A stretch of 63,923 nt of DNA, the filler included, from Sluysia triapertura (Eukaryota): NCBI GenBank assembly GCA_046118255.1. It is 5 parts of 5 records of this genome, joined end to end, with 100 filler letters (N's around TTAATTAATTAA, not from the genome) between each part and the next. Parts side by side here need not be neighbours in the genome. Positions count along the whole stretch, not along the records: positions 53,106 to 63,923 come from JBJNIA010193073.1; 4 more parts are not named here. The stretch is one strand, 5' to 3'. The position numbers and the translations under genes were made by a program. The stretch's first letter is position 1. Each line of letters opens with the position of its first letter. The notes under the pieces were generated by a model. That model saw only the letters and a program-made list of their open reading frames with translations, made no database searches and was not told the origin of the DNA. Below are positions 6 to 63,923 of this stretch, piece after piece.

Positions 6-462
6 CTTCCAGAATCTTCTACTGTCTCATTGACACCCATATGAATATCTGATGGACTTAAAAAGCACGGATACATTCCTAATAATGAAGATCCTTAATA
101 AAAAAAGAAATAAATTTTTTAAATATCATTTTTATTCAATATTTCCCAATTTTTATATCTTAGAGAATACAAACAACTACCATTTTAACGTCAATTTACC
201 GCAGCGATAGAATAAGAACTTATAGTACAATCGTATAAAAATTCACTTATAACTTTTAATTAAATGATTTAAATGTTAAAACGATTTGTAAATATAGATC
301 TATAAAAATGCCTAAACTCGATTTGATATCTCGAAATGTTTTATTCAAATAAGAACTTATTATTGATCGTTATGCAATTGTTAATTCTTCATTAATCGAA
401 TACCTGGGAATTTCAAAATCGAATTTTGTAAATTATAATTAATAATAATAATAATAATAATA

Positions 463-504
<42 letters not shown>

Positions 505-11924: not shown

Positions 11925-12024
11925 NNNNNNNNNNNNNNNNNNNNNNNNNNNNNNNNNNNNNNNNNNNNTTAATTAATTAANNNNNNNNNNNNNNNNNNNN
12001 NNNNNNNNNNNNNNNNNNNNNNNN
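11925..12024. other. Artificial contig spacer
   Basis: N44-TTAATTAATTAA-N44, a palindrome with stops in all six frames. Confidence 0.98.
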
Positions 12025-32456: not shown

Positions 32457-33350
32457 TTAAATAATAGCGCGGGTTAGTGCACCTTGTGATGGCCGGGTTA
32501 TATAGGCATTTGATTTAGGATTAACTTTTAGAAATTTAATATGAGTAATTGTTATGTTATCATTAGCAAAACTAGACTTAAGGTCTGTGTAAAGATTAAA
32601 ATACTTTGAATTAAATTCATTAATTAAAAATTGAAACGAAAAGTAACTCTGTGCATTAATATATTTAAGTTTAACATCAAAGATATCGAGAATATCAAAT
32701 GTATTAAGCATATAAAAAGCATCAAACATCGAAGTTTTTCTAATAAAAGTGTACTGATAATAAACAAATAACGAATATAAATTAAAGTCTAAAACCTTTT
32801 CGCCAGAGAGTTCTAACACTTGAGTCATTGGGCAGAAATTGGCTTCATCCATTTCGTGAGCTATACAGAGTGACATGAATGGTACGTTATCACCTTTGCG
32901 TTCGTATATGTCGGATAATAGATCAAATACTTCATAATATATTCTTTTTCTTATATATTTCAAAATTAATTTCGTAATTTTATTTAACTTTGAACTATAT
33001 TTAAGAACACTTAATACGCTTTCGGTTTCGGAAACAAAATTATTTTTATTAAAAACATCTTTCACGTCACTTCTATTCGGTAAAACTCTAAGATATTTAA
33101 ATTGAGACATTTGTGATATTTCTGATATATTATCATCAAACATACTTTTACTTTTATTCGTACTATCATTGTAATCACTATCCTCGTGTGCATATTTATC
33201 GTCAACATCAACATCACTATATGGATCAATTTCAAAAACGGAATCATGATCGACGTAGAACCTTTTGACTTCTTTTAGATCGACATTAGTATAAATACTA
33301 TTACATCTGTTGGTTACCATATCCCACAGTTCTGGCATTGTACTCTTCAT
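32457..33350 (-). CDS. 297-aa uninterrupted ORF, unknown protein
   Basis: Longest ORF in the window and unlikely by chance at this AT content. ATG start directly after CAG, acidic low-complexity segment followed by a globular-looking region. No motif recognised. Confidence 0.7.
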   Translation of the reverse strand: MKSTMPELWDMVTNRCNSIYTNVDLKEVKRFYVDHDSVFEIDPYSDVDVDDKYAHEDSDYNDSTNKSKSMFDDNISEISQMSQFKYLRVLPNRSDVKDVFNKNNFVSETESVLSVLKYSSKLNKITKLILKYIRKRIYYEVFDLLSDIYERKGDNVPFMSLCIAHEMDEANFCPMTQVLELSGEKVLDFNLYSLFVYYQYTFIRKTSMFDAFYMLNTFDILDIFDVKLKYINAQSYFSFQFLINEFNSKYFNLYTDLKSSFANDNITITHIKFLKVNPKSNAYITRPSQGALTRAII

Positions 33351-34809
33351 CTGGCTAAACTAATTTAATTTGAAAGCTCAATTCAAAATTTTTAAAATGT
33401 TACTTTTTTAAACATTTTCATGCGCAAAATTACCTTGAAACTATATATAGGTCATTTGCATAAAAATATCATAATAGTAAAAAAGTAATTAAAAATAATG
33501 AATATCACACAACTATAAGTTATCTTAAGCAGAAAAAGAAAATTAACAGTAACATAAATTGATATATGGAATATAAATTAAGAAATTAAGGCCAAATTAC
33601 TTTGAGGTTTAACAAAAATTAAAACAATGTATATGTATATATATAATGCTTGTATGTTAATATATTTACTTTATTTAATTTATTTACAATGAATTTAATT
33701 ATATATAAATTATTCTTAAAATAATTTTATTTTTCAAAATAATTTGATATATTTGTATAAATTATAAATTATGATTTCTTTAACATTATACAAAATTCAA
33801 TAAGATACTACAATTGGATTATACTTATATAACAAAGAATATAACAAATTTAATTGCCACATCTTAAATTAATTGGAAAATTATAAAATACTTCAGTAAA
33901 ATAATGCATATGATATAAGAATTTTAATGTATATGCACAATAAAGTTTTGTAAATTTATTGGTGCATCATTTAAAAACAAATCACGATACATAGAAAGTA
34001 GGTATGCATAATTTTAATTACTGTAATCAAGTTTTTATTTTAAGAGTATCAAGGTCATCATAGAAATAGGTTTATTAAAGTTGTAGTGTAATCGCATCTA
34101 TTTTTATTTTTTTTGAAACAAAGACATGTTTGTAACTTTTAACATTTAAATATTTTACTTTTATCGTTACTGTAATTTTTAGAGTTTATTGGAGAATTGT
34201 TCAAATTTTATTATAATATTTTTGGTAAAAGATAAAAACATCAAACCAAATACTGAATAATTGAAGAGCCATATTTATTAAAATATACATGTACCTAAAT
34301 ACTTATATATATTTATATAATGTTCGTAAATTTGTGTACTTTATTAAATCAAATCAAAACAACTTAAGTGTATCTGTTCATTGATGTAGAACAAGGCGTA
34401 TAGAAAGTTGCTACGTAGAAACAATTAATTACATTTGACTTTATAAAATGTTTATAAATTAATTGTAAAATGATATAGGCATTTTGTGTAATGACGAAGC
34501 AAGTAATAATCAAATCTTCATTGGCATGTGTGTTGGGGGTACCCAACTGTTGAATATGAAATTAATAAGGAAGACGTAATTGAAAAAATACGTGAATAAT
34601 TAAGATTGAATTCAAACCATCCTGGTAACCTGAAGAAACTTGAGATGAGCTTGGAAACTTTTTCAGCCATTAACATGTGAATCGCCATGGTCCATGGTAA
34701 TTTAATTACATAATTTAGGTGCTACATCTCGAAAAAATTTAACTTTATACTGTAAAAATATTTTTTACAGATTTGAATTATTATTAAACCTGTTACTTTT
34801 ATCGAATAA

Positions 34810-40500: not shown

Positions 40501-41038
40501 GATCTTCTTCTAACTTGGAATTGACTACAATATGCCATTGTAAAAATGTTATTAGTTATCAATGAATGAACAATTAGTTTAACATTGCTTTATTATTAAA
40601 TTTTCGAATAATTGATATTTACATATTTTAACAATAGAATCTATATTTTCTTCCATGTTCATTTTCGAATTCATAAAGTAGCTCATATTTTAATTATCAT
40701 TTTTTTCAGTTATAAGTTTAATGGTGGCAAGTATACATATTGAGATACCATATTGTGATTGGACACTCAATCAAATTTGATTAAGTGACCAATCAGCAGG
40801 CTCTTCATACGTTGTATTTATGTATTTTGATTTCATTAGTAGTCACCCAATCATTTTTATTTTTTCGTACATAAAGTGGTGTTCATGTGCTTGACATAAG
40901 TATCGTTCATTTGTGTGCCAATACGTAACATTGGTAAACCATATTATAATTGAGATTAGACCATTTAAAAACTCTAGTAACAAACTAACAAATTAATAAT
41001 TACGATTAGTAAAATTAAAAAGCAATAATTAATAACAA

Positions 41039-42015
41039 TTGTTTGATCATTTTTTAGGAATAACTGTTATTACAGAACTTGAAATCGTTTCAAACCTATT
41101 TTTAATATTATTTACATCAAATTTAATTTTTTGTATGCAACAACCGGATCTAAAAGATTCAAGTAACATCAAGTATGATAAAGTTGTCCAAGTATTGTTA
41201 TCAAACGGTCGTAAACACTTATTACAAAATAATTCTTATCGAGATCTACCACAATTTACTGGCTTCGGACTAACTTTCAGTGTTCCTCATATGTATGCTA
41301 CGATCTTGAACCAAATAGCACCAAAATTTACATCGGGTGTAAACTTGTTTCATTTTGATTTATATAGTGAATATTCAACAGCTTATCTTACAAAAACAAA
41401 ATTAAACCATTTTAAAACTATTTTCGCTTAAAGTAAACAATATGAAATCCATGATCTCTGAACACGTGGTTTTGTATGAAATTTCGTTAAAAATGTTAGT
41501 AAACAAACATTCCAATCATTTTGCATCGATAACTCTAAAATAATTATAAAACTTATCATAAATAGTGAATTCACTGCATTTATTGATATTTGTTCATCTT
41601 AAAACAAACACAGGATATGTGGCTAGTAGAAAATTCACTCAATTGTTTCATGATTGTCAAATAAAGTTATTCATTAATAACTATCTCAAAGTCTCTTATA
41701 ACATTCTGACAAGAATTGATGAACATATGAAGTTCATCATAATGAATAATGATATGATACAATCGGTTCAACAAAAATTAAATTTAAAACTAATAATGAT
41801 CTTCAAACTAGTAATTATCATTCCCGTTATGTTAAATCCGGCACATGTCTACAACTACTATGTGCCGGATTCGGCACAAACTGTAATTATGCACATGATG
41901 CATTCGAAATTGAAGATGTTTTCGGTTTGGATTCACAATTTATCAATCATCATCGCAGAATCCGTGATTTAATACTATCTGTGGCATCATATTCAGTCTA
42001 TACTAACGAATACAA
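41039..42015 (+). pseudogene. Decayed CCCH zinc-finger protein fragment
   Basis: A frame not shown in the ORF track gives KSGTCLQLLCAGFGTNCNYAHDAFEIE (41834-41915), a CCCH finger pattern. The surrounding coding-like DNA has stops and frameshifts. Confidence 0.45.
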
Positions 42016-44744: not shown

Positions 44745-46760
44745 CTTGGAAATACATTACTATCATTTGTTCCAGTATTATCATATTTGACTTCAGATAG
44801 TAACTTAAAAAGTGATTCCATTTGATTGACCAAATTTGCTGTATTTAAGGCAAATGGATTACTGAATGCTGATGATGTTATTGCATTATTACCAAAATTA
44901 TTGCTACCAATTGCCCCATTATTGGTTGCCGATCCAGAAGTTGTCATAAATTTATTCACAACATTATCATCAAGTACGTCATCATTATCATTGTCATTGT
45001 CATCTAAAGTTAAATTATTCACAATATTAAAATTTTATAAACCTAGTGAATAACCAAGTTTAGATGAATTTAAGCCCGATATATTGTTTTTTGTTAATGA
45101 TAACATTTGCTGATGAGCCCGTTCTTTAGCTAAATTGTTACATAAGTTATAAAAAATAGTAAATAATTTAATTATATATTTAAGTAAAAATATTAAAAAA
45201 TTTGCTCGTCATTACCTAAAGAATCTCAACAATCATATTTGACCACTGGTACTTATAAGTTTACTCAGCATTTAGTTACTTACAAAATGATTAAATAAAA
45301 AATTATTAAAACAATTTACTTTCAATTATTTAAAATCAAACTAAAGCAACTAATTATATATCTCTAGTGTTCAAATGATTATATGATTAAGATACTTACA
45401 TTTTATTATTAACAAACTTTTTGCTTTTAAACATTATAAATGGGTTTGTTTATAAAAATAACATAAAATTCGGAATTTCTTAATTTTCTGTCTTCATTTT
45501 ACTCAATAAAGATATTTAAGTCTATCTGTTACATAATTTGCAATATATCGCATTTTGTATGTGAGTATCAGCAAAAAATTTTACTATGATAATATGCGAA
45601 GTATAATGCGTATGTAGTTGTATAAAGTAACGACTCAAACCTCTAGAATAAATTTGTACCAAATTAATAAAAGTATATCAAAAAAGGCTTTGGCTTAAGC
45701 TAAGAAAATAAAAATGAAGAGAAGTAACAAATATATACAAAATTAAAAAAACTAGATGAATTAAATTTATTAATAAAAAATAAAATTTAGAAATGCAATA
45801 ATTACCTTACGAATTCATTTCTTTAAATTATCAAAATATAAAAGATTGTTAATTACTTATAAAAAGGTTACCTTTAAAGATTATATTTTGATCTGGCAGC
45901 ACGACAATTTTTAGTATCATACTATTTAAAATTAAGTTATTGTATCAAAATTTACTAGTTTGATGTTTTTAATACTACTGCATAAGATGCAAGTTTATTT
46001 TATTGATACTAAGTAACCAAAATGAATCTTAAGCATTCTGAAATTATGGTATCAATTTTCGCATATTTTGCTTAATTAAAATTCTCATACATTTTTATAT
46101 TAAAAAAATAAAATGTGTACAATATAGGAAATAATTTTTGAATCAACAAAAATCAAAACTATAATTTTTAAATACTTATTATTTAAAAACTTAATATTTG
46201 AATAACTAAAAAATTAAAATTAAGATACTCAATTTAAACAAAAACTAATTTAGATATACAAATTACATGCATAAATATATTCAATGTATTACCTTGTTTT
46301 AGCTGAGCCAATTTTTGTTTCATAATTCGTTTTTCTTCCAGTAATCGCAAAATCTCTTGCTTTTCCAACTCAGTTTGTTTCTTTAATTGATCAATTGATC
46401 TATCTTTAGTTGTATTACCCACTGACATTATATTATTATTGTATTCAAGTCCCACCTCCATAGATTCATCCTGATCTTTTTCATGACAACTATTTTCGTC
46501 ATCATCATTACCTTCTTCCACTTCTTCATCAATTGATTCATCATTTTCTTCAACATCAGTTTCATTATTTTTGGATGCTATCTTTTTGTTGGGTTGTTCA
46601 TCAACAAAATTACTGCAACCAGAAGCACCGTTTTGATTATCATGCTCAGTTGTAATATTGTTTTGATTAACTAAGTCAACATTTTCTTCATCCAAATTAC
46701 CATTACTATTATTATTCCTTTCACATGTCTTTACACAACTGGATTTTGGCTCTAGATTTT
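44745..46760 (-). CDS. Internal exons (~46760-46293, 45129-~45055, ~45003-44745) of an acidic/Asn-rich coiled-coil protein
   Basis: ORFs 46234-46695 and 44729-45022 join through phase-1 GT-AG introns: ..EKQEILRLLEEKRIMKQKLAQLKQ|AKERAHQQMLSL..KL|DDNDNDNDDVL..NQMESLFKLLSEVK. No family recognised. Confidence 0.7.
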
Positions 46761-47591
46761 CTAAAATTATTGTAAAATAAAATTTTAAACATTTTTACTA
46801 TTAACATTTTGTAAAATAACGCTTATTTTTACTATAAAAATAATGTAAAAATAATTTAAAAAAAAATAAAAATGTTAAAATAATTATCATTCATGTGTTA
46901 TGATAATTTTAAAATAAAAATAATTCCAAAATAATGATAAAATAATTTAAAAAATATAATACGCAAAAATTACTGAGATTATAATGTATCAATTTAAAAT
47001 GTTATTACATACAGTTAATATAATTCAAAATTTAGTGACAAATAACAATCAAATTTAAATTGAAATTGTACAAATCATTTTAAAGTAAGATTCAATAAAG
47101 GCAATATGAAATTAACATTTATAAACCTCACTATATAGTTAATAGAAACACTTTAAAATAAAAATAAATAACAATAATATAAAATCAAACTTTAAGAGCA
47201 TAAAACTCGATCAAAATTATCTTAAAAACATGATATGTAATACTATAATATGTAAGTTAAAATTATATTAAATTGAGATCGAATAGAACTAGTATTTAAT
47301 TAAAAATTAATAACATTATTCTCGAGCAAAATAAACTTAAATTAAATATTTGATAGTATAGACAGAATTATGTGTAATCAAATTTAAGAGCACTATAATC
47401 GAGTAAAATCATCTTAAATTATGACTGAATCTTAAATTATGATTATTTAGTAGTTATATACCTAATAATAATTATAATTTATTCTAACGATGAAATAATT
47501 TTGTGTTAATTTTATAGTAACTGGAAATAATTAATTTTATTGTGATTATTATTGAATAATTATGTATGTAATAATTATGATTTATTGTAAC

Positions 47592-47685
47592 TGTAAATAA
47601 TATAAACTTAGAATTTTGTAATGTAAATAATATAAATTTAGTTTTGATAATGTAAATAATAGTATAAATTTAGTTTTGTAAATTT
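47592..47685. repeat. ~29-nt minisatellite, about 3 units
   Basis: gtaaataatataaa(c/t)ttag..tt..taat repeated three times. Confidence 0.6.
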
Positions 47686-48289
47686 AAGCTTTATATTATA
47701 AATTTAATTTTATATATTCAAATATGACAAATTCAGATATTTAACTTTCAAAATTTAAAGTAATTATAGAAAAAACACTAGTAATTAATTTAATTAATCG
47801 TTAATTATGGATAATTTATCTTAAATCATTTAGAAAAGACCTAACTAATTATGAATAATTTATCTCTAATTGTGTTAATTAATCATACATAATTTGATTA
47901 TCTCAGTTTATAATTATTAATTAATTGTCGCTAATTTGTTAAAAAAATTCGGTAAAGACAAAACGAGTCTAAAATATATATATGTAGACATTTCTTCAAA
48001 CACTATGCAGAACTTGTTAAAATTTTTTATTCTAAGTGAGGAACGTATAATTTTCCTGGAAAAATCTATTGATCGTCGAAGTCATTATATTTCACAACAG
48101 AAAAAGATTAGGAGAGTTTAAACTAATTATTATTGGGAAAATTCATCGATTTTTGGAATTGCCAAGCTTCAAAATTATCTAGACAATACATTCGTTTTTA
48201 TTTGGAATCATTGCATCTATTGATACTTTATAAATGAATAAGTAAGCTAGTTTTTGATAGGTTAGAGCATTTAAAATTTGCTTCAAAAC

Positions 48290-49293
48290 CAACTTAAATT
48301 CATTTTTCATTAAAAAATCCAAGCATTCGCCTTGATCAAAATCATTTTTAAAATCCAATTTATAGTTTGTATTGTCATTAAGCCTGGAGCGCAGTTTAGT
48401 GCAAAATTACCAGCAGTCGAAAAGCTCTTTCAGCTTCTACACCAGTTGGAGGAATGGTTAACAATGCATGATATACCTTTTCTAAATATTTACCCCTAAA
48501 TCCATCATGAAAATACAAGTCTACTTCTCTCTGGATGGTTGTCGATATATCTGATCCAGGAATTGTAGTTGGACTTGTATATATTTTGTTAATAATCGCT
48601 AATTATAATCTTTCCTTAAGTGTAAGTTTCATTTCATCACCATCTTTGCTGTTTCTATACCTTTATCGATTTCTTTTGAATGACTACAAGTATCCGGATA
48701 AAATTTTTCAATGAAATTTACTAAAAAAATGATTAAAATTGAGCTTTTAATCTTTTTCATTTTTGTAATTATTATAATTGTGTAGATACAGTAAAATATC
48801 TTCTATTTCAGTGTGCCTTCCTTCTATCCGTTTCTTTAAAGCAATATATAATTCATACGATAGTTATGTATGTTGTTATTAAAAAGATTAAAAGAACCAT
48901 CAATGTTCAATCATTAATATTAAAACAAATATGAAATTAAAAGTACATAATGATAGCATTGTATAGACGAGTTTTAGTGTGGAATGTTCAAATAAGGAAA
49001 TCCAAATAAATTATCTTTTAAAATTTTTTTAAAGTACAATTTTTTTGCACAAATAAAAATCTAACAGTGAAATTGAAATATATTACCGATCTTAGATCGT
49101 CCTAAACATATATGACGTTCTTAAAACATCATACGAGATATTTCTTCCTTCTTGATCACGCGAAATGTTTTATACAATATAACTAAAATTTCCTTAAAAA
49201 TTTTCTAATACCGAAAAACCAGTATTTTGAAGCTGCGATTACCGGTATTGCGAGATCGAAAAAAGGTCAGGCATCCCGGTACTGGAAACCCTA
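48290..49293 (-). mobile_element. Decayed hAT transposon (second family member)
   Basis: Terminus reads TAGGGTTTCCAGTACCGG on the minus strand from ~49293. Dimerisation domain GFRGKYLEKVYHALLTIPPTGVEAERAFSTAGNF lies at ~48500-48400. Confidence 0.88.
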
Positions 49294-50805
49294 GTTGTGA
49301 TTTTATGGCCAAATTTCGTCTGCACTACATAACTTCATCATTTAATTAGTAATAAATTTGACTTAATAATTAAGCTTCCTCTACTCATCCATTTTTAAGA
49401 TATATTTATATTTTACTTATATTTATCTAAATCTATGCATAATTTTTCAAATTTATTATAGCAATTTTGCATAATTCCATTTCTAAGACAAAATATATAA
49501 TGTAAAATGTAATGTAATATATCGTCACAATTACAATATCAGAAATAATATAAATAAGGTTTCTAAATAAATAAATAAATAAATGATGCCAAATCTAAAA
49601 CAAAAACTTCCAAAAAAATATCGAACATCAACACTACACATGTTACTAATTCAATTATTACAAAAAAAAATAATAAATGCTATAAAAATGAACACAATGA
49701 ATAATAATTTACTTTGTCTTTATAAATAAAATTAAAATTCATATTTTAAATCTCAATTTTATTTACAGCGAGGTATATAGATTATTAATAGAGATCATAA
49801 GACATTTTGATAAACCCGTACATTATTCAAACAAATTATTTAATAATTATATATTTAACGGACGAAAAAATAATTAAAAAATTATTTTTTCACAAAAACA
49901 TCAATTTAGAAATTGAAGTTAGCAAACATTGGTGGGTTCTAAAAATAAATGCAAAATTAATAAAAGCATCTAGTAGATACATTTACGGGTTATCGCTACA
50001 GTAAAAATTATTACATAAATATATACAAAACGACACGATAATAATAATAATAATAATTGGTAACTACATTGTTTACTCAATTCCGTCATCTGGACATTTT
50101 TGAATCGGTGAATTATCTGGTTTTTTATGAAATTGTGAAATAATTAAACCTGAAATTACATTAAATTTTTGTACTTTAAAAAAATGTGCACAAAAAAACA
50201 AAATTCAAATTTAATTTAATCACATATTATCAACTAAATTCATATTCAAAGTTAGGAAAAATTATATTATTCGATTAAAAATTAAATTGAATTTACGAAA
50301 TTATAAAACAGTTCAAAAACTAACTATAATTCGTTCAATCTATACAATACGAAGATCACTCAGACATCCACACTATGATATCTCATTATAGTTCACGCAT
50401 ATATATAGGAGTTGCTTAATTACATGTGTCTCATTAATTTGATACGCAAACCATATGATGAATTAGGTCTGTCAATCTAACAACATTAGCGACCAATAAG
50501 ATTCTTTTCTAATTTTAACAAACATTTCTCACTTTAAAATAACATTTATAGCACTAGATTTCAATTTCTCGTACCTCTTGACACAAGAAAACCACATTAA
50601 ATACCTATTAATTAATTAATTTAATACTTTTTTGCTTCAAAACTTAGTTCAAGGTTTATGAACCTTCACGATTTTATCTAGATTCTAGTTTTCTTGCTTT
50701 ATTCTTGTTGTTTTTTCAATAATTCTTCGTTACATTTATATTTTCACTATAATCTAATGATTATTAAAGTTAATATTATTTTTAAAATTAAAAAATAAAT
50801 ACATC

Positions 50806-51525
50806 CATAACCGAACCAAAAACTTAAATAAAAATTACATATCAAAAACGACAAATGTAATTTCTACTTTTATGTTACCTTCGCTACTATTCATTTCCTT
50901 CTTTGAAATGACTTGTTGCGTCATCTTATTGATTTTGTTCCGACGTCATTGCTTGAATTTTGTTCAGCATGCACTTCTGGACTCCCATTCTTAAAAATGC
51001 AGCGAATGACTTTAGATTCAAGGACTAGGTACAAGCATGGTGAAGAAAGATGGCAGTACCGAGTAAGTAGACTGGCCTAGATGGCCCATTCTTCTTTGAA
51101 GGTTATGTTAATGGTGAACGTTACCTTGATATGAAGACTAAAGTGTTTCCTATTGCTAATGAGTTCCGCCATTTCGGTGATCTTCATTTTCAACAAGATG
51201 GGACACATAAGCACTACACCAAGGATGTTCGACAATGGCTTGATGAAACATTTCCTAGACGTTGGATTGGGTGTCGGATCTATTGGGGCGTTCTAAAGAA
51301 CGCAGTTTATGCTAAAAAGCCTAGGACAATTGATCAATTAAAACAAAGTATTCAGCACGAATGGAACCAAATTTCAAAGAAAACTTGTCAGAAAGTATGT
51401 CGCAGTGTTGTCAAAAGATGTTGTTTTGAAGTTCAAGGTGGAGATTTTGAACATTTGTAAATACTAAATAGATTTATTAAATTTGTCGTTTTTGATATCT
51501 AATTTTTATTTAACTTTGCGGTTAG
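50806..51525 (+). mobile_element. Internally deleted Tc1/mariner element (rosa/maT-like DDD transposase)
   Basis: GPFFFEG.VNGERYLDM, FQQDGTHKHY..VRQWLDETFPRRWIG, WGVLKNAVYAKKPRTIDQLK..GGDFEHL. The WPxxSPDL segment is deleted. A ~40-nt inverted repeat links 50812-50856 and 51481-51525. Confidence 0.9.
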
Positions 51526-52031
51526 TCAAGTTCTAAATGCATCGTTAAAATTAATAAGTAAGAAGTAATAAGTAATATCATTTCAAAGACAATTTTATAG
51601 TGGAGAACGCAGTAAAAAATATCTTCATACACTTTTTCATTACAGAAATTATTACGAAATATTCAAAATTTTCAACAAACACAAATAGTGTTTAGAAAAC
51701 GAAATTTATATTAATAAATTTTATGTTAGACAAAATTAATTAATTAATTAATATATTTTCTATTTTTAATATTTTGTTTTTCTGTTCTCAAAATTTATAA
51801 TTTTATAAATTTATAATGCAAATACATTTTTTAAAAAATTCAATTTTGTGCATTTAATTTCACTGATGTCACACATCATTCTTTTTAACATTTAACCAAA
51901 TTATCCTTTACATTTGCTATTTAATTGAACATTGATTATTTTTGTTTTCCTCGATTAACTGTCACTCTTTATTATGACTAATTTAAAACAACGTTTAATG
52001 AAAATAAATTAGTAAATAATAATTTATTTAA

Positions 52032-52611
52032 CACTTTAACTACGAGGCTTATTTATTATTTTGTTTTAGAACAATATTATAGCAAGAATAAAATTTAAAA
52101 ACTAAATATATTATCTTTTTGTAAGTTGACATCTTCTTGCAATTTGAAGCTATCTCTGTGTCTATTTTTGGTGTAAAATGAAACTTTTAATTTTAAATGG
52201 AGTTTTTCTCAATGTTTCATTTTAATCTCTTAGTATAAATTGTACAGTAAAATCTCCATAAAATGAACTTCTAAAATGTATTATTTTCTCTAACTTGATT
52301 ATTTTTTGTACGGAATAGAAATTCGACTTATGTATAGATGTGTATATTTCTACAACTCATACTTTTGCCTCTAAAATAAAATACATACTATCTTCCATAC
52401 GTAGAATTCCTAATATAAAATTTTCTCAATACTTATTTTAGATATAAAATGAAAATAATTCTTTATAATTAGACCAAATAGTAATAATAAATTATGTCAG
52501 TTTCTATGTCCTATGCGTCTAAATGAAATCAGATATTCATAACATAGTAACGACACCTGTTCCCGAAGCCATTCATCAGATCGTTTATTGACGACAGCCG
52601 CATTTAAAGGG
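52032..52611. mobile_element. piggyBac-type non-autonomous remnant
   Basis: Right end ..gcatttaaaggg|TTAA and candidate left end TTAA|cactttaact. The TIR match is short. Confidence 0.4.
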
Positions 52612-52883
52612 TTAAATAAATAATTTATACAAAATTTGAACTTTAATTTTGTTCGATAGATGTTCAGATTGTCAGTAGTTAAAACATTTCTAAATTTATT
52701 AAATTTAATTGTTGGTTTTAGCACCATAAAACTATCAATTAAAAGATAATTATGTGATACAAATGATTTTTTATATACGATTAAATCGAACAGAGAATGC
52801 ATATTTAATATTAGTCTAAAAATTAACAAAAGTTAATTTGTTAATTAAAAATGTTTAACCTAACAATCCAAGCGATAAAAATC

Positions 52884-52885
<2 letters not shown>

Positions 52886-52938
<53 letters not shown>
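52886..52938. repeat. (ATT)n microsatellite
   Basis: Perfect tandem repeat. Confidence 0.9.
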
Positions 52939-53005
52939 GTTGGGATTAGTAAAGAATAAGGGTTGATAGAAGGGTCAAAACTTAGGACAGCAGTGTCAGT
53001 GGAAC

Positions 53006-53105
53006 NNNNNNNNNNNNNNNNNNNNNNNNNNNNNNNNNNNNNNNNNNNNTTAATTAATTAANNNNNNNNNNNNNNNNNNNNNNNNNNNNNNNNNNNNNNN
53101 NNNNN
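53006..53105. other. Artificial contig spacer
   Basis: N44-TTAATTAATTAA-N44. Confidence 0.98.
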
Positions 53106-54067
53106 TCATTAGAAGAAAATTTTCTTTGAGTCTTATATTACATTTTCGAATAGCAAAAAGGTAATTTAAAAATTTAGTTGGAAAGAATGTCCCTGTGTCA
53201 TACTAGAGTCAGTGATTTGTATTATTTCAAACAAGTAAACATTCAACTAGTCAGATTTTACATCTTTCCCGTAGCCATACTTTAGGTCCGTCAAATTTAT
53301 GCTTATTTTAGCAAAATTAATACAAACTAAATAGGTTACAGATTAGCTTCTTTTATTTTCCAAATCAATTTATTTTTAAATTATTACTAAAATAATAAAA
53401 CAAATAAAATAAATTTTTCCAGAAAATACTTTGAAAAATAATATTTATACAGCTTGTTATCTTGCTTATACATGTATTATCTCATCATATTAAATTGTTT
53501 TCAATTTTATAATCGTTTATTTAAACGTTATAAATGTATCTCTAAATAAGAGTTATGAAAATAAAAAGAATTTCCGAAGAAACTGACTTCAACAATCAAA
53601 CCTATATCTTAATTCCATCTGCTGGATGAACCACATATTCCCACAGATTCATCAAGCATAAATACATTGGTATATGAATGTTATTAATAATACATTAATA
53701 TTTTTTTATTTAATCAAATAAATCCGCTCTAGCTCCACCCCATCTTTCATAAATGAATTAATTAGATTATCTAATTCTGTATCACATGTACCGATATCAG
53801 CTGATACCATTGGTGCATCATGATAATTTCCATCCATCGATCAATTTAAGTACACTAGACGATTTTAGTAAAATTAATATTGTACATGAATCACTGTATA
53901 CGAAAATGATGCAACAGAATGCGTGCCTCATATTTATCACAAATTTGTAGTGCATATACATGGGCAGCAAAATTTACTAACATAAATAGTACAAGGAGTT
54001 TAGTTAATGCGAGTGAATAAAAAAATTTAAGCGTATGTGTAGAAATTATTTTGGCATATTTTACGTC

Positions 54068-54420
54068 ATGTTAGCAAGTATTAATTACAAAGGTTACGTT
54101 TTAGATGATATTAGGCATTTAAAATTTAGCCAAAATATTATGTATGTAAATTAAAAGCTTACTTATTGGTTATTTTTGAAAATGTTAAGTGAGAATATAT
54201 TTCACATCCAATAAGAATCCAAATTCAAAGTAGACGAATTAATTAATTTATATAAGCTTGGTAAGTGATGCATGTTCGAACCTGAAATTTTTCCTGCCTT
54301 GCGTTATTTGAAATGCAATTATTTGTGTGCCAATATGTTTATTAGTGGTAAAGTTGTGTTTGGTTTTAAAAACATGCAATTCGCTAAGGTTGTAGAAAAA
54401 ATTAAAAATAATTGGATTAT
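54068..54420 (+). pseudogene. Divergent TBP-like protein (viral type), disrupted
   Basis: MLASINYKGY..IQIQS..INLYKLGK*CMFEPEIFPALRYLKCNYLCANMFISGKVVFG matches the second TBP repeat (YEPELFPGLIYRM..LIFVSGKVVLTG) but is far more diverged than canonical TBP. Internal stop and deletions. Confidence 0.75.
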
Positions 54421-54469
54421 TTCAAGTAAAAAAATTTAGAAAAATCATTTTGTTATTTTTAATAAATTA

Positions 54470-54900
54470 TTATGAATCAAATGGATCTTTTGCAGAGTTA
54501 CAATCAGCATCACATGCCTCTCAAAAATTTGGCCGAATTGAAGAGACTGTAGAACATATTATGGGAAGATTTGAGTCCGACAAAGAAACTTCGATCATTA
54601 TACTTGATGACAATTATTTTCCGGACTTATCGCAGAGTCCTGATCACTGTAAATTTTTATTAATTTTTAATTGATTTTTTATTTACTGCAGCTACAGAAG
54701 ATTCAAAATATTGGCCGAAAGAATCAAATAATTTTATTTTTTTAAATATATTGTAGTTTCAAATATTTTTTAATTTTTCATTTGTTTAGCGGTGTAAAAT
54801 ATTTGTCATGGTAACGCAAAAGCATTTTGTACAAAAACATTAAACACTAAAAACAATGTAGGGCAAAAAGTATACGCTTTGCATTAACTAAATCTTAAAT
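54470..54900 (+). pseudogene. Possible FtsK/A32-type packaging ATPase remnant
   Basis: Walker-B-like TSIIILDD (~54587-54610), followed in another frame by IFVMVTQKHFVQ (~54799-54834), like the hhhhTQNxF motif of Polinton ATPases. No Walker A seen. Confidence 0.4.
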
Positions 54901-54999
54901 ATGATTAGTATGATTAAACACTAAAAACAATTATTTATAATAATACACTATGTCCAGATTATGGTCATAATAAGAATTTAGGATGATGCACATATAGTG

Positions 55000-55380
55000 G
55001 CACAAATGTAGGACCATACAAATATTTTAATAATATGAGTGCAATTAATACAAGTGGTTTTACAAATACAAAAATAAATCAATTTGGCAAAATTATGAAA
55101 GTTATTTTGCGTGAAGATTTATCGACGTGCTTAGGATTTAGATTTCAAAGATTTGATAAAAATAGAACAGATAACTCTCTTTTACTGAATAAAGCTATCA
55201 ATCGCATGTTCATTTACTTGAACTTATTTGAACCGATTCATATTAAGTACCATTTATTTATCTCTACCTCATCATTTATAAACAATACAGAAGTTAAGAT
55301 TTGATGATTCCGAAAAATTAATTTATTTTTCGTACGGAAATGAAACAAATTTAATTCTGCATTTACGAAAAATACAATGA
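55000..55380 (+). pseudogene. Polinton minor capsid (penton)-like remnant
   Basis: LSTCLGF..D..INRMFIYLNLFEPIHI..SFINNTEVKI/(frameshift)DDSEKLIYFSYGNETNLILHLRK* follows the penton pattern L..+LGF..++Y.N++.P..I.+.+.D..G..+.F..G...+.LHFR. Confidence 0.65.
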
Positions 55381-55540
55381 TTACTGAAATGACTAAAGCT
55401 TATAGTCAACCACAAATGGATGGGAAACAATGTGGTTGAAACAATCGGAAGACTAGCTTTTCCTTTAATTAAGTGATTCGGACGATTTTTAGGTAGAACT
55501 TCAGAAGAAGTATTAGTTGTCGAAAGACCAATGGAAGTTA
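55377..55540 (+). pseudogene. Polinton basic core-protein-like remnant
   Basis: The ATG overlaps the upstream stop (ATGA). YSQPQMDGKQCG / VETIGRLAFPLIK*FGRFLGRTS resembles the Q.G.G...+.R.A.P++K..G+.+G+ motif. Confidence 0.45.
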
Positions 55541-55587
55541 TATAATTTCCTTTAATCAAAATTTACATTTACTTGAATTTAAGTGAA

Positions 55588-55658
<71 letters not shown>

Positions 55659-55676
55659 TAATAATAATAATAATAA
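55588..55676. repeat. Compound (AAT)n/(ATT)n/(AAT)n microsatellite
   Basis: Tandem repeats that switch orientation and form a potential hairpin. Confidence 0.85.
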
Positions 55677-56042
55677 CGAAATGAATTAATAAGAATTTTA
55701 TTTAAAGTACAATAATAAGGTAAATCACATTTTATGATATTGTATAAATTTATAATAAATAAATAAATAATTGATATGATAAATTCTATAATTATATATT
55801 TCAATGAAAATCTTTTATTTAGTAAAAAAATATCTTAAATTATATTTTATTGTAAAATAAAATAATTTTGAAGAAAAATTTGTGTATTTGAAATATTGAA
55901 AGATCGGATTGATAAAAGTTATCTGAAAATCAATCAAAAACTAGCAGAAATGCTATGTATATTTGAGCATTTGAATAAAATAATAATAATAATAGTAATA
56001 ATAATAAAGATAATAATAATAGTAATAATAATTATTATTAAC

Positions 56043-58727
56043 CTTTGTTTCTCTATCCAGAAGCCTAGCAATTACTATAGTACCGTTTGGCATAACATCT
56101 AAGGCTGTATCGTCGCTCCAAATTCGCTGAAAAATGACTTGCGCATTTACACCTTCATCGGGATCGTTCCAAAGCAAATTGCACACGGATGTTCCCATAT
56201 TAGCAGATTCATAAACAGAACATTCAGTTAAATTTTCTTGTTTCAATAAAGTCGGTGGATTATCGTTTTCATCTTGTATTTCCACGGTAACGATTGCTAT
56301 AGCTGAGAGAACATCGGCTTTGTTTGGAGGATTATCTTCAACTTTTACTTTTAACTGAAAGTGGATCAATTTAATAATAAAATTAAATTTCAACTTTTAT
56401 CATTATATAAATTTCAAGGCATAAATTAAAAATTAAAATTTAGTTTACAAATTTTAACAATTTCATTCGTAAATTTAAGAATAATATGCATTAATAAAAG
56501 CTTAGAGGTAAAAATATAAAATTTTTCATTCGTTATATTAAAAAATTCAAAGAAAAAATATCCATGCATTTTATAGTTGTAAAAAAATAACTAAAATAAT
56601 TTAATAAATTCGTAAAAAAATAATAATTACCTTTCAGATGTGAAAAGAATTCTTTGAAAAAGTATGTCTTAACATTCTGCATACATTAATATGTGTTAGA
56701 CTTAATTAAACGAGATTCGAACACGGTACCTCTTACATCACAACTGTATAATTCGATACTAACAACCGCGTCTAACAATTTTGTTTTATTATAGTCAATT
56801 ATGCTATCATTATTCTAAATGGCACTTTAAGCCTGAGCCATACAAATCCATTGGACCAATAAAATAAGAAAGTTAATTTTTTCATTAAACAAATTTATTT
56901 GAAAAGTCAGAAAGTCAAAACAACTGGACCGAATGGTAGGCGAAATGTTATTATAATTTTATTTTATATTGTCTTACACAAATTTCAACTTATAAACTTA
57001 TCTAATATAAAATTTATTTTCCTCATTATTATTTTTGTTACTTATTTATTTAGATAATTTTGTATTTATTAATATTTCATTAAAGACAATATAAATATTA
57101 TTTTATAAACTATTTTAAGACATAATAAGTTTTGCTTTATTTTCACTTATTAAAAACCAAACATTAGTTTCTGAAATATAAATAAATATAAATAGCTATA
57201 TAAGATAAAATAATATTGAGTTTAATCTATAAAGGTCTTTGAAAGATTTTGTTTATCATTTTTATTACCTTTCTTAATGTTCTTTTTTTCAAAATTTTTA
57301 TCAAATTACGATAAATTCTTAGAAATTTGTTTCGTTTTTATTACTTTTTTTGTGTAAAATTTCATTGTTTATTATTTAATATAAATGATAATTTAATCTA
57401 GTCTATTTTGATTTATAACATGGGTGTATTAAACAACAATGACGTTAACATTGACAATATGTTGATTGAAGATTTGCAATAATTTATTACTAAAGCCATT
57501 GTATGTTCAGAAAGATATTTCTTTAGTTGATTTGGGCAAGAATGAATTTCTGAAGTCACGGCATTGTATTATAAAAAAATAAAATATACAGATTAAATGA
57601 TCACGCATTAGATTTACATTAAACTAATTGCTACAAGTTTATAACAGTAAGTTAACATAAAAGCAACTCTAAAAATTATTTATTTTAAATTAAATTGGAT
57701 CCAAAGAAATATGAATAGGTAACTAGTGTCAATTCTAAACTCTTATAGCAGGATCCAGTTAGAGTAAACGACGTAAAAGTGACGTTCCTGTAACAAAACA
57801 TTTATAAATCTTAACGTGATATCTATCTTTTGGTTTTTATTCCTTCAGTTTTCCTCATAAAACTTAGCTAATTTCTTCGTAAATGTCGAACCGCTAATAA
57901 AACACTATAATTTATCCTCAAAAATTGATTTAATTATTAATATGTAACTCTCGAATGAAGAATTGTAACACCACTTTGTGTTAAACATGGAATTTTAATA
58001 AAAATGGGTATAAAGAATTAAAAACATAAATATTAATATTAGTAAATTTTATTAACGACAAACTTAAAATAAAAGATAAATCAGAATAGAGAGAAGGAAA
58101 ATAAAATATTTTAAAATTAAAGTCTTTTGGGTCTTTAATTTATTAATATTAAAATTAACAATCAGATTTTGCCCATCATTAAATCGGGATTAAATATTTT
58201 TATTCAAAATGATTTCAAAAGTTCAAATGACTTAACAATAATAAAACATATTACTAAAAAGATTGATTCCACTGATAGCGATTAAATTATGCTTCTTGGT
58301 TCTTATTTTGTCAAACCAAATTGGGAAATCAAAAATGACATGTTGAAATTGAATTATAGATTTTTAAATTTTGTTTCCGATTCATCTTTTATTCAGAAAT
58401 GTTATGTTTTCTAAAATTAAGTCAATTTTTGGTATTTTTAAGACTTAATGACAAAAAACAACAACAACAACAACAATAATAATAATAGAAATAAGAAGAA
58501 AATGAAATACAAATAAATAATATTTAAATAATAATATTAATGATGAAAATTATGATGTTAAAAATAATACATACTGTGTGTCGAGCCAGATGTTCTCTGT
58601 CCAGTAACATACCTCCGGCTACGGTTATTAATCCCGAATCTGAATTTATCCGGAAATATGGTGTCTCTTCCATGAGCGAAAACGATAAACGACTATTATT
58701 ATTTGAATCTTTATCACTTGCATTTAC
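56043..58727 (-). CDS. Cadherin-repeat protein (protocadherin/Fat-like), internal exons 58727-58575 and 56354-56043
   Basis: VNASDKDSNNNSRLSFSL..FRINSDSGLITV..LDREHLARHT|LKVKVED..VTVEIQDENDNPP..SVYESANMGT..NDPDEGVNAQV..LLDRETK shows the canonical AxDxD, LDRE and DxNDNxP motifs with phase-0 GT-AG junctions. A candidate upstream micro-exon ends at 59969 (DTGQWITK). Confidence 0.93.
56706..56834 (-). mobile_element. Diverged copy of the tRNA-containing repeat in a cadherin intron
   Basis: Minus strand aggcttaaagtgcc..aattgactataataaaacaaaattgttagac..tcgaattatacagttgtga..ggtaccgtgttcgaatc aligns with 5464-5597. Confidence 0.75.
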
Positions 58728-61700
58728 CTAAAATAGCAACAATTATCGATTATAAAAATTGTTACAATATTTATTAAAAATTATTATATATGAATGTTTT
58801 ATTACTTTTTGAACAAGCTCTTGAAATTATCAAATTAAATTTTCTAAACTAGGATTGTTATAGATAAATATGGTGGAAAGATGTGTATTACTGATATTTG
58901 TCAGAATAAGTACTAAGCTGGAAAATGTATTTCCTGAAGTCACAAAAGTGATTTGAGAAAATGCTTCGAATGCGGTTAACATGGTCGATTGTAAAAAGAT
59001 GATACTAAAATATTTTTAAAATGTATACACTTTCATAAATTAATTAATTATTAATATTAATTTTTTATTAATTTTTTATTAATTTATTAAATAAATAATT
59101 AATTTTAATATTTAAAATTATAAAAGTTATAGCATCAGTAATATTCTTCAGTAATATTAATACTTGTTTAATGCAACAATGCGATAATACACTCCACTTA
59201 AACTAATCATGAGCAATTTGCATTTTAATTTATACAAAATCATTAATTAACATAATGTACCACATTAAAAAATTATAAGTATTAATTCTACATTTACAAT
59301 AACTAAGAAATTTCATCAATTCACCTTTTCATCAATTTTAATACATTCAAGAAACACTTATTTTAAAATATTTTATTAACTTTAACCAAAACTAAGAAAT
59401 AAAAGTAATTTTTAATTTCATCAAACAATTTTATTCGATTTTAATATTTTTTATTTTATTTGATGAGCTTTTTAACAATGTTATCTTTATTTTAATTCGA
59501 ATTTTAAATGTTATATAAATTACGAAATAAAATTCTTCATGACAAAGGAATTCAATCAAATACTTCTATAGTGATATTTGAAAATAATAAAAATCGAGTA
59601 ATCAATTAGAAATTCATACACGAAGTACATTATAATTCTAAAATACATTAACGAAAATTACTTTAGTAGAGAATCATGAATATTCCCCATTGTTTATAAA
59701 TAATTGTTTATTAATAATGTTAATGAAGAGATTATTATTATTATTATTATGAAGAAATAAATATTCACAAATTTATAGCATAAAATTATATATTTTCTTT
59801 TAAACAGTATGGTATTTACGTATAATAAATAAATTATATTACTAGTATTTTATTATTACTATTTATTAACAATGAACCATGAATTTTAGTTAGTTTTTAT
59901 TTTTGAAATAATTATGATTTATAAAGTATAATAGATTAATAATAATATTGTTAACTATGTCACTTAACCTTTGTGATCCATTGTCCAGTATCAATGAACA
60001 TAATTCTATCAAAATTTCTTTTAAATTGTTATTTATAATCTTAAGTGATTGAGGTTTATCTATATCTTTATGTTTCAGTTAAATTTGTTGAAACTATAAA
60101 TCATGTTTTCTTATTTTAGATTATAACCTTAATAATTTATTTGCTAAATTTTAAATTAAATTAATTAATTTAAGTTAAGTTCAAACAGAGTAATATAAAT
60201 ATCTGTAATATTTTTCCATTACTCAGGTATAAAATATGATGTATTTTCCATTTATAATTTAATAAAAACAATATTTTAATAATTAATTTATATTTATTAT
60301 AGTGAATATTAAAAATGCCTAATTTTTGAAAATAGATAAAACTGAAGATTTTATTCAATCAAACATTCTAAACAATCTAAACTATCATAAAATCTAAGTT
60401 ATCATTAATAATAATTAAATATTTCATTCATTTTTGCTATGATTTATTAATATTTATTATATAATTGTTTCATTAAAATTTGTATTTATTAATTTCTTTT
60501 GTAAATAAAACACTGAAATTCAATATCAATATCAATTATTCTTTATTTATTTATTAATGAAGAAAATTAGAAGCGTATTATTTTTAAATACTATCAGAAA
60601 TATTGAAGCTTTTAACGGATTATCGTAAGATTTTAAAAATTGCTAAATCGTTAAAACTTATTATAAAATATAATAAGTAAAGTTAGTTGTAATAATTTCA
60701 CGACCTTACCAAAAATATCACTTTTTTTAGTCAGGAAATGTATTTAAATTTATAAAATGTCATATTTTGTATTGGAAATTTTGTTATTGCTGAAAAAATA
60801 AAACTTTTATAAAACTAAAATTAGTATTTATTATATTTGCCGTTTCATTTTGTTACTTCAGACTTCCGACAAGCATAATTTTAACTAAAACATATTACTT
60901 TACACCTTAAAGAAATATTTACTTAAGTTAAGCGTACGAATGCATTTTTAGTATAAATGGCTTCTTAGAGCCCTACACTTTTTATATTTATTAAAATTGA
61001 TGTGGTTTTACTTAAAAGTAATTGATCTACAAGGATGAGTGCACAAAAATCAAATTAGTGAGCTCTCTTGGATGCAAGATTTACAAACATAATGGCTATC
61101 CATAGGAGTTTGATAAGATAATGATAGAATTATTAACTACATCGAAAAACTATAATTATAGTTGCAAATTTTTGATCTTATATTCAAAAGATTATTTATA
61201 AATGATTTTATGTTCTTATTTAATTTATTACATCGAAAGAGTGATTTTGTAACTTTTAAAAATGAGACGAATTTTATACAAAATTATTTACTTTTCCTCA
61301 TTTTATGGACTTATTAAATATAGTCGTCCATTTTATAATTAAAAATGGAAGCTATACGAAATTAATAATTAGCGAAATCCAAATTATTGTTACAATGGAT
61401 AAGTAAGTAATAATAAAAATTAAAGATATATGAAACAGTTATTGAATCTATTAATAAAGGATTTTTACTGGAATGAATCGAAATTGTATGAAGTAAATAA
61501 ATAATTTATTTATTGGTAAATTTCCTCGATACTATATCTACATTTTCAAATTATAATCTTTAAGCTGGAGCTATTTTCATAACGCAAGACACACTAATAA
61601 ATCACCTTCATGAGTATGTTATTCTTGGGAAGTTTGTATATAAGTATTATAAACATTTGAGCAGAAGCTGTTTTAATATGAAAATCAAAAAGGAAATAAA

Positions 61701-63923
61701 CATGAGAAATATAAATAATAATTATAATCATCATGTATGCACACATTTTACACTTTGTTCACTTTCATTATCGCTAACAGAAAAAGTTAACATGCAATTA
61801 ATGGCGTAGATCATTGCTGGTGATTATGATATTCTTCTTATTATTATTATATATTTGGAATTTCAGAATCTTTACATTTCTATTTTTTCAATTTATCCCA
61901 TATAAGTAATTATCTTTTGATTCAATTTCTTTCATTATCAGCATGTTTATTTCAAGTCGAACAAACTTTTAGTAATAAATGATTGCTTGAGTTTCTCTAA
62001 TGATATCCTGTATAAATGACGATCTAAAATTCAAGTTAAGCACTATATTAGAAGTGACAAGTCTTTGAACTATATATTAACAGTGAAATACATTGCGTCA
62101 AGTCGTACAGGTAAATAATAATAGAGCAAGAATATAAAACAAAGATAGAACGATAACATCAACAGAACGATGACTTCAACACTCATAATAAGAATAAAAT
62201 AAGAATAATAACCGATAATAAGAATAGTGACAGTAATGCAACGTGAAACAATAATAATAATAATAATAATAAAGTTGTACTGTATTGTTAGTAATTTGAA
62301 TTGTTGTGTGTAATGATATAAAATCGTAGTTTAACCTTATTTTAATTGTTGTGTGTAAATTATTGCTAAATTTTGATTATTGTTTTGAGGTTTAATTCAT
62401 CATTTAATCAAACACAATTTCAATAATTACAACAAAAAGTAAAAAATTTTAATGAAAAAATTATTGTAACATGGATAAATCACTAATATCAAAATATTAT
62501 ACAAAATCACATATTAGATAAAATTAATTACAAATCTTAATTAATAAATAAATAATAACAATATTTATTTATTATACTATTTGCAGTATTAACAATGTAT
62601 ATAAAAAGTTAATTTCATCTATATTTTGTTATATAAATTTTACTTAACCAAATAATACCAATTTTATATAGCTGATGAACGTAAAGTTTTTATGACATTT
62701 CTTGCATTAAATTTAAAGTACAACAGTTAATTGAATAATATATTATTAATAATAAAATTGTTATTTTAAAGCATTTATTATTTTCAAGGAAAAACTAAAG
62801 ATTTAAAAGATTAAATTAATATATTTTATAGAAGTATAAATTACACAATTAATTTTCAATATAAAATTAAATTTTAAAGAAAAAAATGTAACTTTTCATG
62901 GATTTAGTATGAACGTTTTTTGTTTAATAATTTCACATTGTTTTAATTAAATAAAATTTTAAATTATCGTCACAGTAACATTTTAGTTACAATTATATAA
63001 TGATTTAATTTAAATATTTTATAAATATTTTATATAATTTTTAATTAAAATCAAAACTAAACAAGAAAAATTAAATAAATCATATTTTACAAATAATTTA
63101 TTCATTTTCTTCAAAATTTAATAAATTAAAGCTATATATTTTTTAGGAATTTTCTCCGTAATTATGAAAACAGTATCAAAGTTTCATACTAAATTCATAG
63201 AAAATTAATTTATATATATTATTAATTAAATTTATTGAAAAAATCCTAAGGAAGTTATATTTCAAAATTAATATTTCTAATAAATTTTAGTTAATTTTTA
63301 AACTAATTTTAATTTTAATTAGTTAAAATAATTTGAAAATTCCAATTATTATTAAAATTTATTAATTAAATCGGTTTAGAGTTTTTGTTTAAAATGTATT
63401 AAAATTAGAATTAATACAAAAACATATTTAATTATTTTTCAAATAAAATAGTAAAGATCCATTTTTTGTTTAAGTATGACATTTAATTAATTAAATTTTG
63501 TCAGCGAAAAATTTTTCTTCCATAAAACCTACAATGAAAAGACGTTTAGTGTTAAATTCATTATAGAAAGATTTTATTTGGAATTGTTAAGATAAAATTA
63601 TATTTTGTCAAATAAAAGTACATTAATAATAATAATTATTATTATTGTAATATTAATACAATTATTCTTAGTATGGGTAGTAGGGCGTGAGTTTGTTTAT
63701 AAAAATTTGATTTATTTATCTTACAATTAATTTTATTATACAACGACTTATTATTATAATTGTCAGGTATGGATAGATTATTATAAACGATGTGCTTAAG
63801 GCACTTAAGTTTTTTTACTTTAAATTTTCTAAAAAATAATTCAATGTAAGACACAAGACTTTTATTAAAAGCGTTTTTTAATACATTTACCGTTAATTGA
63901 ATCATAGTATCATTATATTTATT

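Follow-up and report, generated by a model that had tools for sequence, protein, structure and literature searches.

A dead Maverick/Polinton copy in Sluysia triapertura from a lineage that encodes a ~150-residue TATA-binding protein, likely a late-gene switch

Within a 63,923-nucleotide stretch of DNA from Sluysia triapertura (GCA_046118255.1; hereafter the window), we found a Maverick/Polinton copy that is dead and carries internal deletions; its lineage encodes a TATA-binding protein (TBP) of ~150 residues that, judged from sequence, likely acts as a late-gene switch. All three genes identified in the relic (TBP, penton and a core-like gene) are interrupted by stops, frameshifts and deletions, and this copy yields no working protein. 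Because it is a deleted relic, we describe it as derived from a Maverick/Polinton and not as a complete member; the copy in the window is only a fossil, and its value rests in the family. At stake are the timing of Maverick gene expression and whether Mavericks still act as viruses: a TBP gene together with a matching box in front of the virion genes, and not of the TBP gene itself, makes a directly testable early/late switch.

The relic and its host setting

The window has ~24% GC and contains glypican, ankyrin, PCMT and cadherin exons (Table 1), a set that suggests an animal as the host. Four identical spacers (44 N, TTAATTAATTAA, 44 N), at 11925, 23086, 37446 and 53006, have the appearance of contig linkers, so the window probably consists of five joined pieces and neighbours across a spacer may be unrelated. 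The piece carrying the TBP relic starts at 53106, right after the N spacer at 53006-53105. Elsewhere, 51071-51460 (+) resembles, by its motifs, a Tc1/mariner transposase remnant and has no Pfam match; 32457-33359 (-) is a 300-amino-acid stop-free frame in this 24% GC genome, also without a Pfam match, for which the Atlas leads were weak (EF-hand-like, all <0.9).

Table 1. Positions of the relic's features, of host exons and of accessory genes in related loci (window positions unless a locus is named)
Feature	Position	Strand	Remarks
Host glypican exon	16400-17219	-	
Host ankyrin exon	20747-21007	+	
Host PCMT exon	41036-41431	+	
High-copy piece	53691-53856	.	other host copies join it to the TBP start
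Mini-TBP pseudogene	54068-54439	+	profile pieces 54068-54189 and 54242-54409
Coding-like middle segment	54440-54986	+	hhhhDD at 54594-54611; intron-like GT..AG stretch 54649-54691
C-terminal part of penton (minor capsid) gene	54987-55380	+	profile and hhalign
TATAAACA box	55277-55284	+	inside penton tail, 99 nt before inferred core start
Small core-like gene remnant	55377-55536	+	frameshifted, with stops; start codon inferred
(AAT)n microsatellite	55586-55676	.	recognisable element sequence ends here
Host cadherin exon, flanking gene	56044-56360	-	PF00028, E=4e-6; 5' boundary approximate
Accessory genes in related loci	L023:225-719, L017:4008-4316, L041:1918-3327, L053:1710-2168, L059:13315-13893, L060:218-1216		

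A frameshift-aware profile search of 53110-55585, with profiles built from related loci and 46 same-length tiles of the window as controls, revealed three genes that exceed the controls, namely TBP, penton and core. The TBP pseudogene, disrupted by in-frame stops and by two or more frameshifts and missing a short internal piece between its two repeats, scored 84.8 bits with the mini-TBP family profile vs 19.3 for the best of the 46 control tiles. The frame from 54068 also matched Pfam TBP (E=5e-4, 20.2 bits; curated cut-off 22.9), all 34 PDB sequence matches up to E=10 were TBPs or TBP fusions, and the N-terminal repeat was recovered partly in another frame (hhalign E=2e-4; 35.4 bits). The penton tail, with a frameshift near 55290-55300 and an internal deletion, scored 31.6 bits vs a control best of 21.3 and aligned with seven relatives at 84% in hhalign (E=8e-6). 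The predicted fold of a relative's penton best matched the mavirus penton (E=2e-7; Z 13.2, rmsd 7.1, 230 aligned) and also matched the Sputnik and adenovirus pentons. The core-like remnant scored 34.7 bits vs a control best of 17.8; its homologue in the relatives is a small gene flanked by penton and major capsid, for which we use the name core; no library names it. The preliminary description had read TBP-like, penton-like and core-protein-like motifs in the first and the last two of four coding remnants, and all three readings are borne out by these scores.

The remaining 24 profiles stayed below 20 bits in 53110-55585. Those of ATPase, c4, protease and c26 beat their own control best by only 0.1 to 1.6 bits, which we treated as noise. 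No plus-strand score for integrase, major capsid or protease rose above the controls in 53110-55585; a minus-strand protease score of 17.8 vs 16.9 in the controls lies antisense to the core gene. PolB had no match in the whole window, and of the 404 inverted pairs in 45000-63923, the 25 longest included no terminal inverted repeats.

The middle segment, in which the preliminary description had read Walker-B/TQ motifs, could be either an ATPase remnant or a small spliced accessory gene, the latter being allowed by the intron-like stretch. The ATPase profile reached 16.9 bits in 54437-55000, a score equalled or exceeded in 4 of 216 control tiles, and several unrelated profiles scored alike on the same stretch; hhalign of the segment against ATPase gave 1.8%. 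The window contains no Walker A pattern, and the DD motif is ~205 nt away from the TQ motif, vs ~90 nt in the relatives, and in another frame. In favour of an ATPase, the hhhhDD pattern occurs only twice in the six-frame window and the best ATPase alignment ends on the copy in this segment; the ATPase also often follows the TBP gene in related loci. Neither the middle nor the upstream segments matched anything in 80 related loci or Pfam.

The relic probably recurs elsewhere in the host. The stretch was found in one sequencing run, possibly that of the source sample, and in no listed RNA run. A total of 1138 contigs of this one run match the stretch, 597 of them at <90% identity, and summed contig depth, which is not a copy number, was 200-3600 across most of the relic vs 8-20 in most flank bins. 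These sequence data indicate that the relic family is probably old and many-copy. Joints in these contigs tie TBP-region to penton-region DNA, so that these two of the remnants in the preliminary description are linked in other copies as well. Further joints connect 53780-53789 to 54055-54084, and the high-copy piece upstream of the TBP start probably belongs to the same element; it has no match in the 80 related loci. Protein-like remnants lie on the minus strand at 53560-53960, over a very high-copy piece. On the other flank, the cadherin exon described as ending on a donor at 56043 is real and has a GT donor, and another exon of the gene lies near 58604. No later cadherin exon was found between the 56044 exon and the N spacer at 53006-53105, and therefore a position of the relic within a cadherin intron is plausible but unproven.

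The mini-TBP family and its Maverick context

When the TBP and penton frames were used as queries, word-index protein searches gave no match. Among 1.84 billion proteins, a word-free search recovered 52 relatives of the TBP frame at E<=1e-3, the best at 54.7 bits vs 20.6 bits for the best solved TBP. Nearly all 52 are short and carry an N-terminal INY motif and EPE(L/I)FPA...CVN(V/I)F. Of 3062 candidates, 425 matched the family profile at E<=1e-10; in viral_contigs, motif patterns yielded no mini-TBP family member, and a pattern scan for canonical TBP was likewise blank. The relic bears the family's own residues (INY start, R194, C203 and N205). In a tree of 81 columns of the C-terminal lobe, for which 40 of 126 family rows were used, the relic groups with the 40 mini-TBP rows (100/99) and separately from 15 outside TBPs, which are archaeal, fungal-type (one) and viral and include no animal TBP and no TRF2. 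The outside TBPs derive from 30 loci from two scans, after exclusion of duplicates, fragments, non-TBP sequences and two long fusion proteins. TBP genes of eukaryote or giant-virus type also occurred in prokaryote-labelled genome bins (L110, L106, L108 and L111), probably as contamination.

An intact relative of ~150 amino acids is predicted to adopt the two-lobed TBP saddle (pLDDT 96.7; Foldseek E=4e-9; Z 13-14), and its residues 1-149 align to yeast TBP 66-240 (Z 13.5, rmsd 2.8, 147 aligned). It has no helix of at least four residues before residue 84, and both N-lobe helices are gapped in 95-100% of 126 aligned family proteins. Residue conservation was taken from these 126 proteins, with what we take to be the yeast TBP residue numbers, anchored on the PDB alignment. 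F116, F190 and F207 (100%), E186 (96%), E188 (100%) and N69 (96%) are retained; thus three of the four intercalating phenylalanines are kept, the F99 position being proline in 99%. Replaced are V71 by N (97%), V122 by R (98%) and T124 by M (100%) in the N-lobe set and, among the others, N159 by S (98%), I194 by R (97%), V203 by C (97%) and L205 by N (100%), so that, with F99, eight positions of the DNA face have residues that are new and almost invariant in the family. The N-lobe reads the 3' half of the TATA box, and the V71, V122, T124 and F99 changes fall in that lobe. Positions I194, V203 and L205, all replaced and conserved in the family, are the specificity-altering positions of yeast TBPm3 in the available passages of PMC1636458. 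Both glutamates of the acidic TFIIB stirrup, E186 and E188, are kept in the relic. The second helix of the N-lobe, according to passages of PMC7221094, holds the basic patch for TFIIA, TAF1, Mot1/BTAF1 and Brf1.

A metagenome scan gave 169 confirmed stretches, the best 80 of which were kept as related loci. At least one Maverick gene (ATPase, integrase, penton, major capsid, protease, PolB, PLA2 or core) is carried by 43 of these best 80 of 169, and by 29/36 among loci >3 kb, with Pfam support for Maverick genes. By gene, again among the best 80 of 169, the counts were 27 for ATPase, 17 for integrase, 16 for PLA2, 14 for penton, 11 for major capsid, 8 each for protease and PolB, and 7 for core. 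The label major capsid is our assumption: the protein had no library match and its profile gave no PDB match. Gene order around TBP varies among the loci; in the relic, TBP, penton and core all share one strand, an arrangement also seen in most relatives. The proposal of a Maverick lineage with its own TBP is upheld by these counts, and the TBP fragment falls in the mini-TBP group and not with the cellular TBPs of our tree, animal TBP and TRF2 being outside its rows. No TFIIB or RNA polymerase family was found among 102 locus proteins scanned; because no terminal inverted repeats were found in the 5 partial related loci tested, this absence covers partial elements only.

Additional features of the related loci were recorded. 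Two small ORFs (clusters c10 and c3) lie upstream of TBP in L005, L012, L013, L017, L021 and L036, and an intron-like stretch between them hints at a spliced early gene, in contrast to vertebrate Mavericks, which are reported to be intronless. Accessory genes near TBP-bearing elements encode ubiquitin-conjugating enzyme, dual-specificity phosphatase, LRR, RING and KilA-N proteins (Table 1), and one element has two tandem penton genes (L023:5616-7684).

The YATAAACR box and a proposed late-gene switch

An unbiased word count over 262 dereplicated upstream regions revealed ATAAAC in 111 vs 15.7 expected. The box has the consensus YATAAACR, the seventh position of which is C in 122/173 sites, and 87/93 TAAACA windows read ATAAACA. 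The base before the box is A in only 6%, so the box is not the AATAAA poly(A) signal. Boxes were counted per gene up to 100 nt from the start codon, to which all distances were measured, in 267 regions left after dereplication of 312, and 73/141 sites lie 30-49 nt upstream of the start. The box precedes ATPase in 25/25 cases, major capsid in 10/10, penton in 10/13, integrase in 11/15, PLA2 in 9/12, c4 in 14/17, protease in 3/4, core in 3/4, c1 in 18/22, c26 in 5/5 and c15 in 3/5. It was scarcer before c3 (3/18), ZnF (3/9), c14 (1/9), c10 (0/8), c18 (1/7), c17 (1/5), c20 (0/5), KilA (1/4), PolB (1/3), c25 (0/3) and short penton (1/2). Only 4/62 TBP genes have it, and canonical TATAWAWR precedes 27/62. 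When eight virion, packaging and integrase classes, picked after the counts were seen, were pooled, the box was present in 85/100 vs 4/62 for TBP, against a background of 396/5750 tiles; the loci are related and several come from similar samples, so these counts are not independent despite dereplication, and a P value drawn from them is overstated. Antisense boxes numbered 0-1 per gene class except for TBP (6).

Some boxes sit inside coding sequence and may be held there partly by protein constraint. The box may also be general to Mavericks, as the counts cover TBP-bearing loci only; in viral_contigs there was no Maverick ATPase or capsid match, and in the phage collection no capsid match. In the relic, the TATAAACA box is the only sense ATAAAC in 53106-56100. 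The box-to-core distance in relatives is 97-106 nt in 5/6 and 32 nt in the sixth.

From the gene content, family membership, predicted fold, box and box distribution, we infer binding, timing and TFIIB use as follows, and consider it somewhat probable, on sequence grounds, that mini-TBP is a one-protein late-gene switch working via host TFIIB and Pol II. The mini-TBP gene would be transcribed early by the host machinery from an ordinary TATA promoter. With its rebuilt DNA face, the protein would then bind the YATAAACR box that precedes the genes for capsid, packaging and integrase, and would recruit host TFIIB, hence Pol II, through its retained EPE stirrup. In most large DNA viruses the stirrup is lost and TFIIB is virus-encoded (passages of PMC7221094), so the kept stirrup points to host TFIIB. 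The suggestion in the preliminary description that the TBP may redirect host Pol II to viral promoters draws indirect support from the promoter-like box. Mini-TBP would also escape control by TFIIA, TAF1 and Mot1/BTAF1, and would withstand the usual eviction and inhibition, because the N-lobe helix with their docking site is gone. We give even chances to the broader proposal that this widespread Maverick lineage has the smallest known viral late-transcription system, consisting of one 150-residue TBP with a rebuilt DNA face, its own YATAAACR promoter and host TFIIB, and immune to TFIIA, TAF1 and Mot1. If so, it would represent a natural orthogonal TBP-promoter pair and would be evidence for a timed early/late virus cycle of these elements in the nucleus.

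Other explanations were weighed against the late-gene switch. Host factors, either a forkhead protein or host TBP, for which the box would be a weak TATA variant, might read the box while mini-TBP does otherwise, for example by soaking up TFIIB to damp host transcription; we regard this as unlikely. Forkhead sites include ATAAACA and the form GTAAACA, yet GTAAACA is rare, given the predominance of ATAAACA among the windows counted above. The box is one base off canonical TATA, wild-type TBP is on a C(-25) variant in a solved structure, to go by the title of PDB 1qn3, and the retained stirrup would be needed by a decoy too. However, the strict strand bias and peak position of the box fit a core promoter and not an enhancer site, and a pure decoy would have no need for eight conserved, family-specific DNA-face residues. 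We consider it more doubtful still that mini-TBP is a non-transcriptional DNA-bending protein that guides integration, packaging or replication at its own boxes. Its gene often adjoins ATPase and integrase, the loss of F99 means that the bend may differ, and the targeting of the Ty3 integrase by TFIIIB offers a precedent, but the boxes track gene starts and not element ends, the TFIIB-contacting glutamates are near-invariant, and gene order around TBP varies. Finally, it is scarcely credible that the TBP piece is an ordinary host TBP or TRF2 pseudogene that lies by chance beside Maverick debris: although the Pfam and PDB matches say TBP and the tree rows contain neither animal TBP nor TRF2, the piece bears the family's own residues, nests in the mini-TBP group, is many-copy, and shares the strand of penton and core.

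Comparison with known systems

The relic resembles Mavericks, Polintons and adintoviruses in its penton and core remnants, and its relatives have pPolB, an rve integrase, an A32-like ATPase, an adenain protease, a penton and a putative major capsid; unlike those elements, the relic is without most core genes, and no terminal repeats were seen among the longest inverted pairs around it. The eight core genes that the available part of PMC8097293 lists for vertebrate Mavericks do not include TBP. A TBP-like gene in a Polinton-like element has already been labelled, as the MELD-virus maps of Starrett et al. bear the label 'TBP' (legend of Fig. 5 in PMC8502044; legends of Figs. 5 and 6 in bioRxiv 10.1101/697771); it may belong to the same family. 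The available passages of PMC8502044 and of bioRxiv 10.1101/697771 hold no analysis of TBP structure, range or promoter, and the readable text of Fig. S2 of Starrett et al. carries no such label. The term 'TBP' likewise occurs neither in the main text of PMC10748475, PMC11131425, PMC8097293 and PMC12220804 nor in the readable supplements of PMC8502044, PMC10748475 and PMC8097293. These legends are the only mention of a Maverick TBP that we found; figures, slide supplements, Repbase reports and subscription papers may describe more.

The beta- and gamma-herpesvirus vTBP invites comparison. In passages of PMC12529657, KSHV ORF24 is a viral TBP mimic that reads TATTWAA at late promoters with host Pol II, and in this respect, a viral TBP mimic on a variant TATA at late promoters using host Pol II, the Maverick protein may be alike. 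ORF24 is described there as large, part of a six-factor complex, binding Pol II directly and predicted to be incompatible with TFIIB, whereas the Maverick protein falls below even TBP in size and has retained the TFIIB stirrup. Matches of the herpesvirus structures to mini-TBP were weak (TM 0.3-0.5), with no sign of close kinship, and none of the five viral partners of the herpesvirus kind was found among the 102 locus proteins scanned. The likeness is an analogy only.

With cellular TBP and TRF (PF00352), mini-TBP shares the saddle fold, the C-terminal lobe and the EPE stirrup, but it is ~27 residues shorter, is missing both N-lobe helices, has a rebuilt DNA face and is 20-26% identical. Giant-virus TBPs, as described in passages of PMC7221094, likewise have the two-lobe fold and conserved L5.1 phenylalanines and have lost the N-lobe regulatory signature. 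In contrast to mini-TBP, they have a mostly diverged stirrup (conservation ~40%) and bring a virus-encoded TFIIB; no TFIIB was seen in the Maverick loci. Overall, mini-TBP is a natural experiment on TBP, in which the regulatory helices are dropped, the TATA-specificity residues are changed and the TFIIB contact is kept, a pattern that is the reverse of that reported for most giant-virus TBPs.
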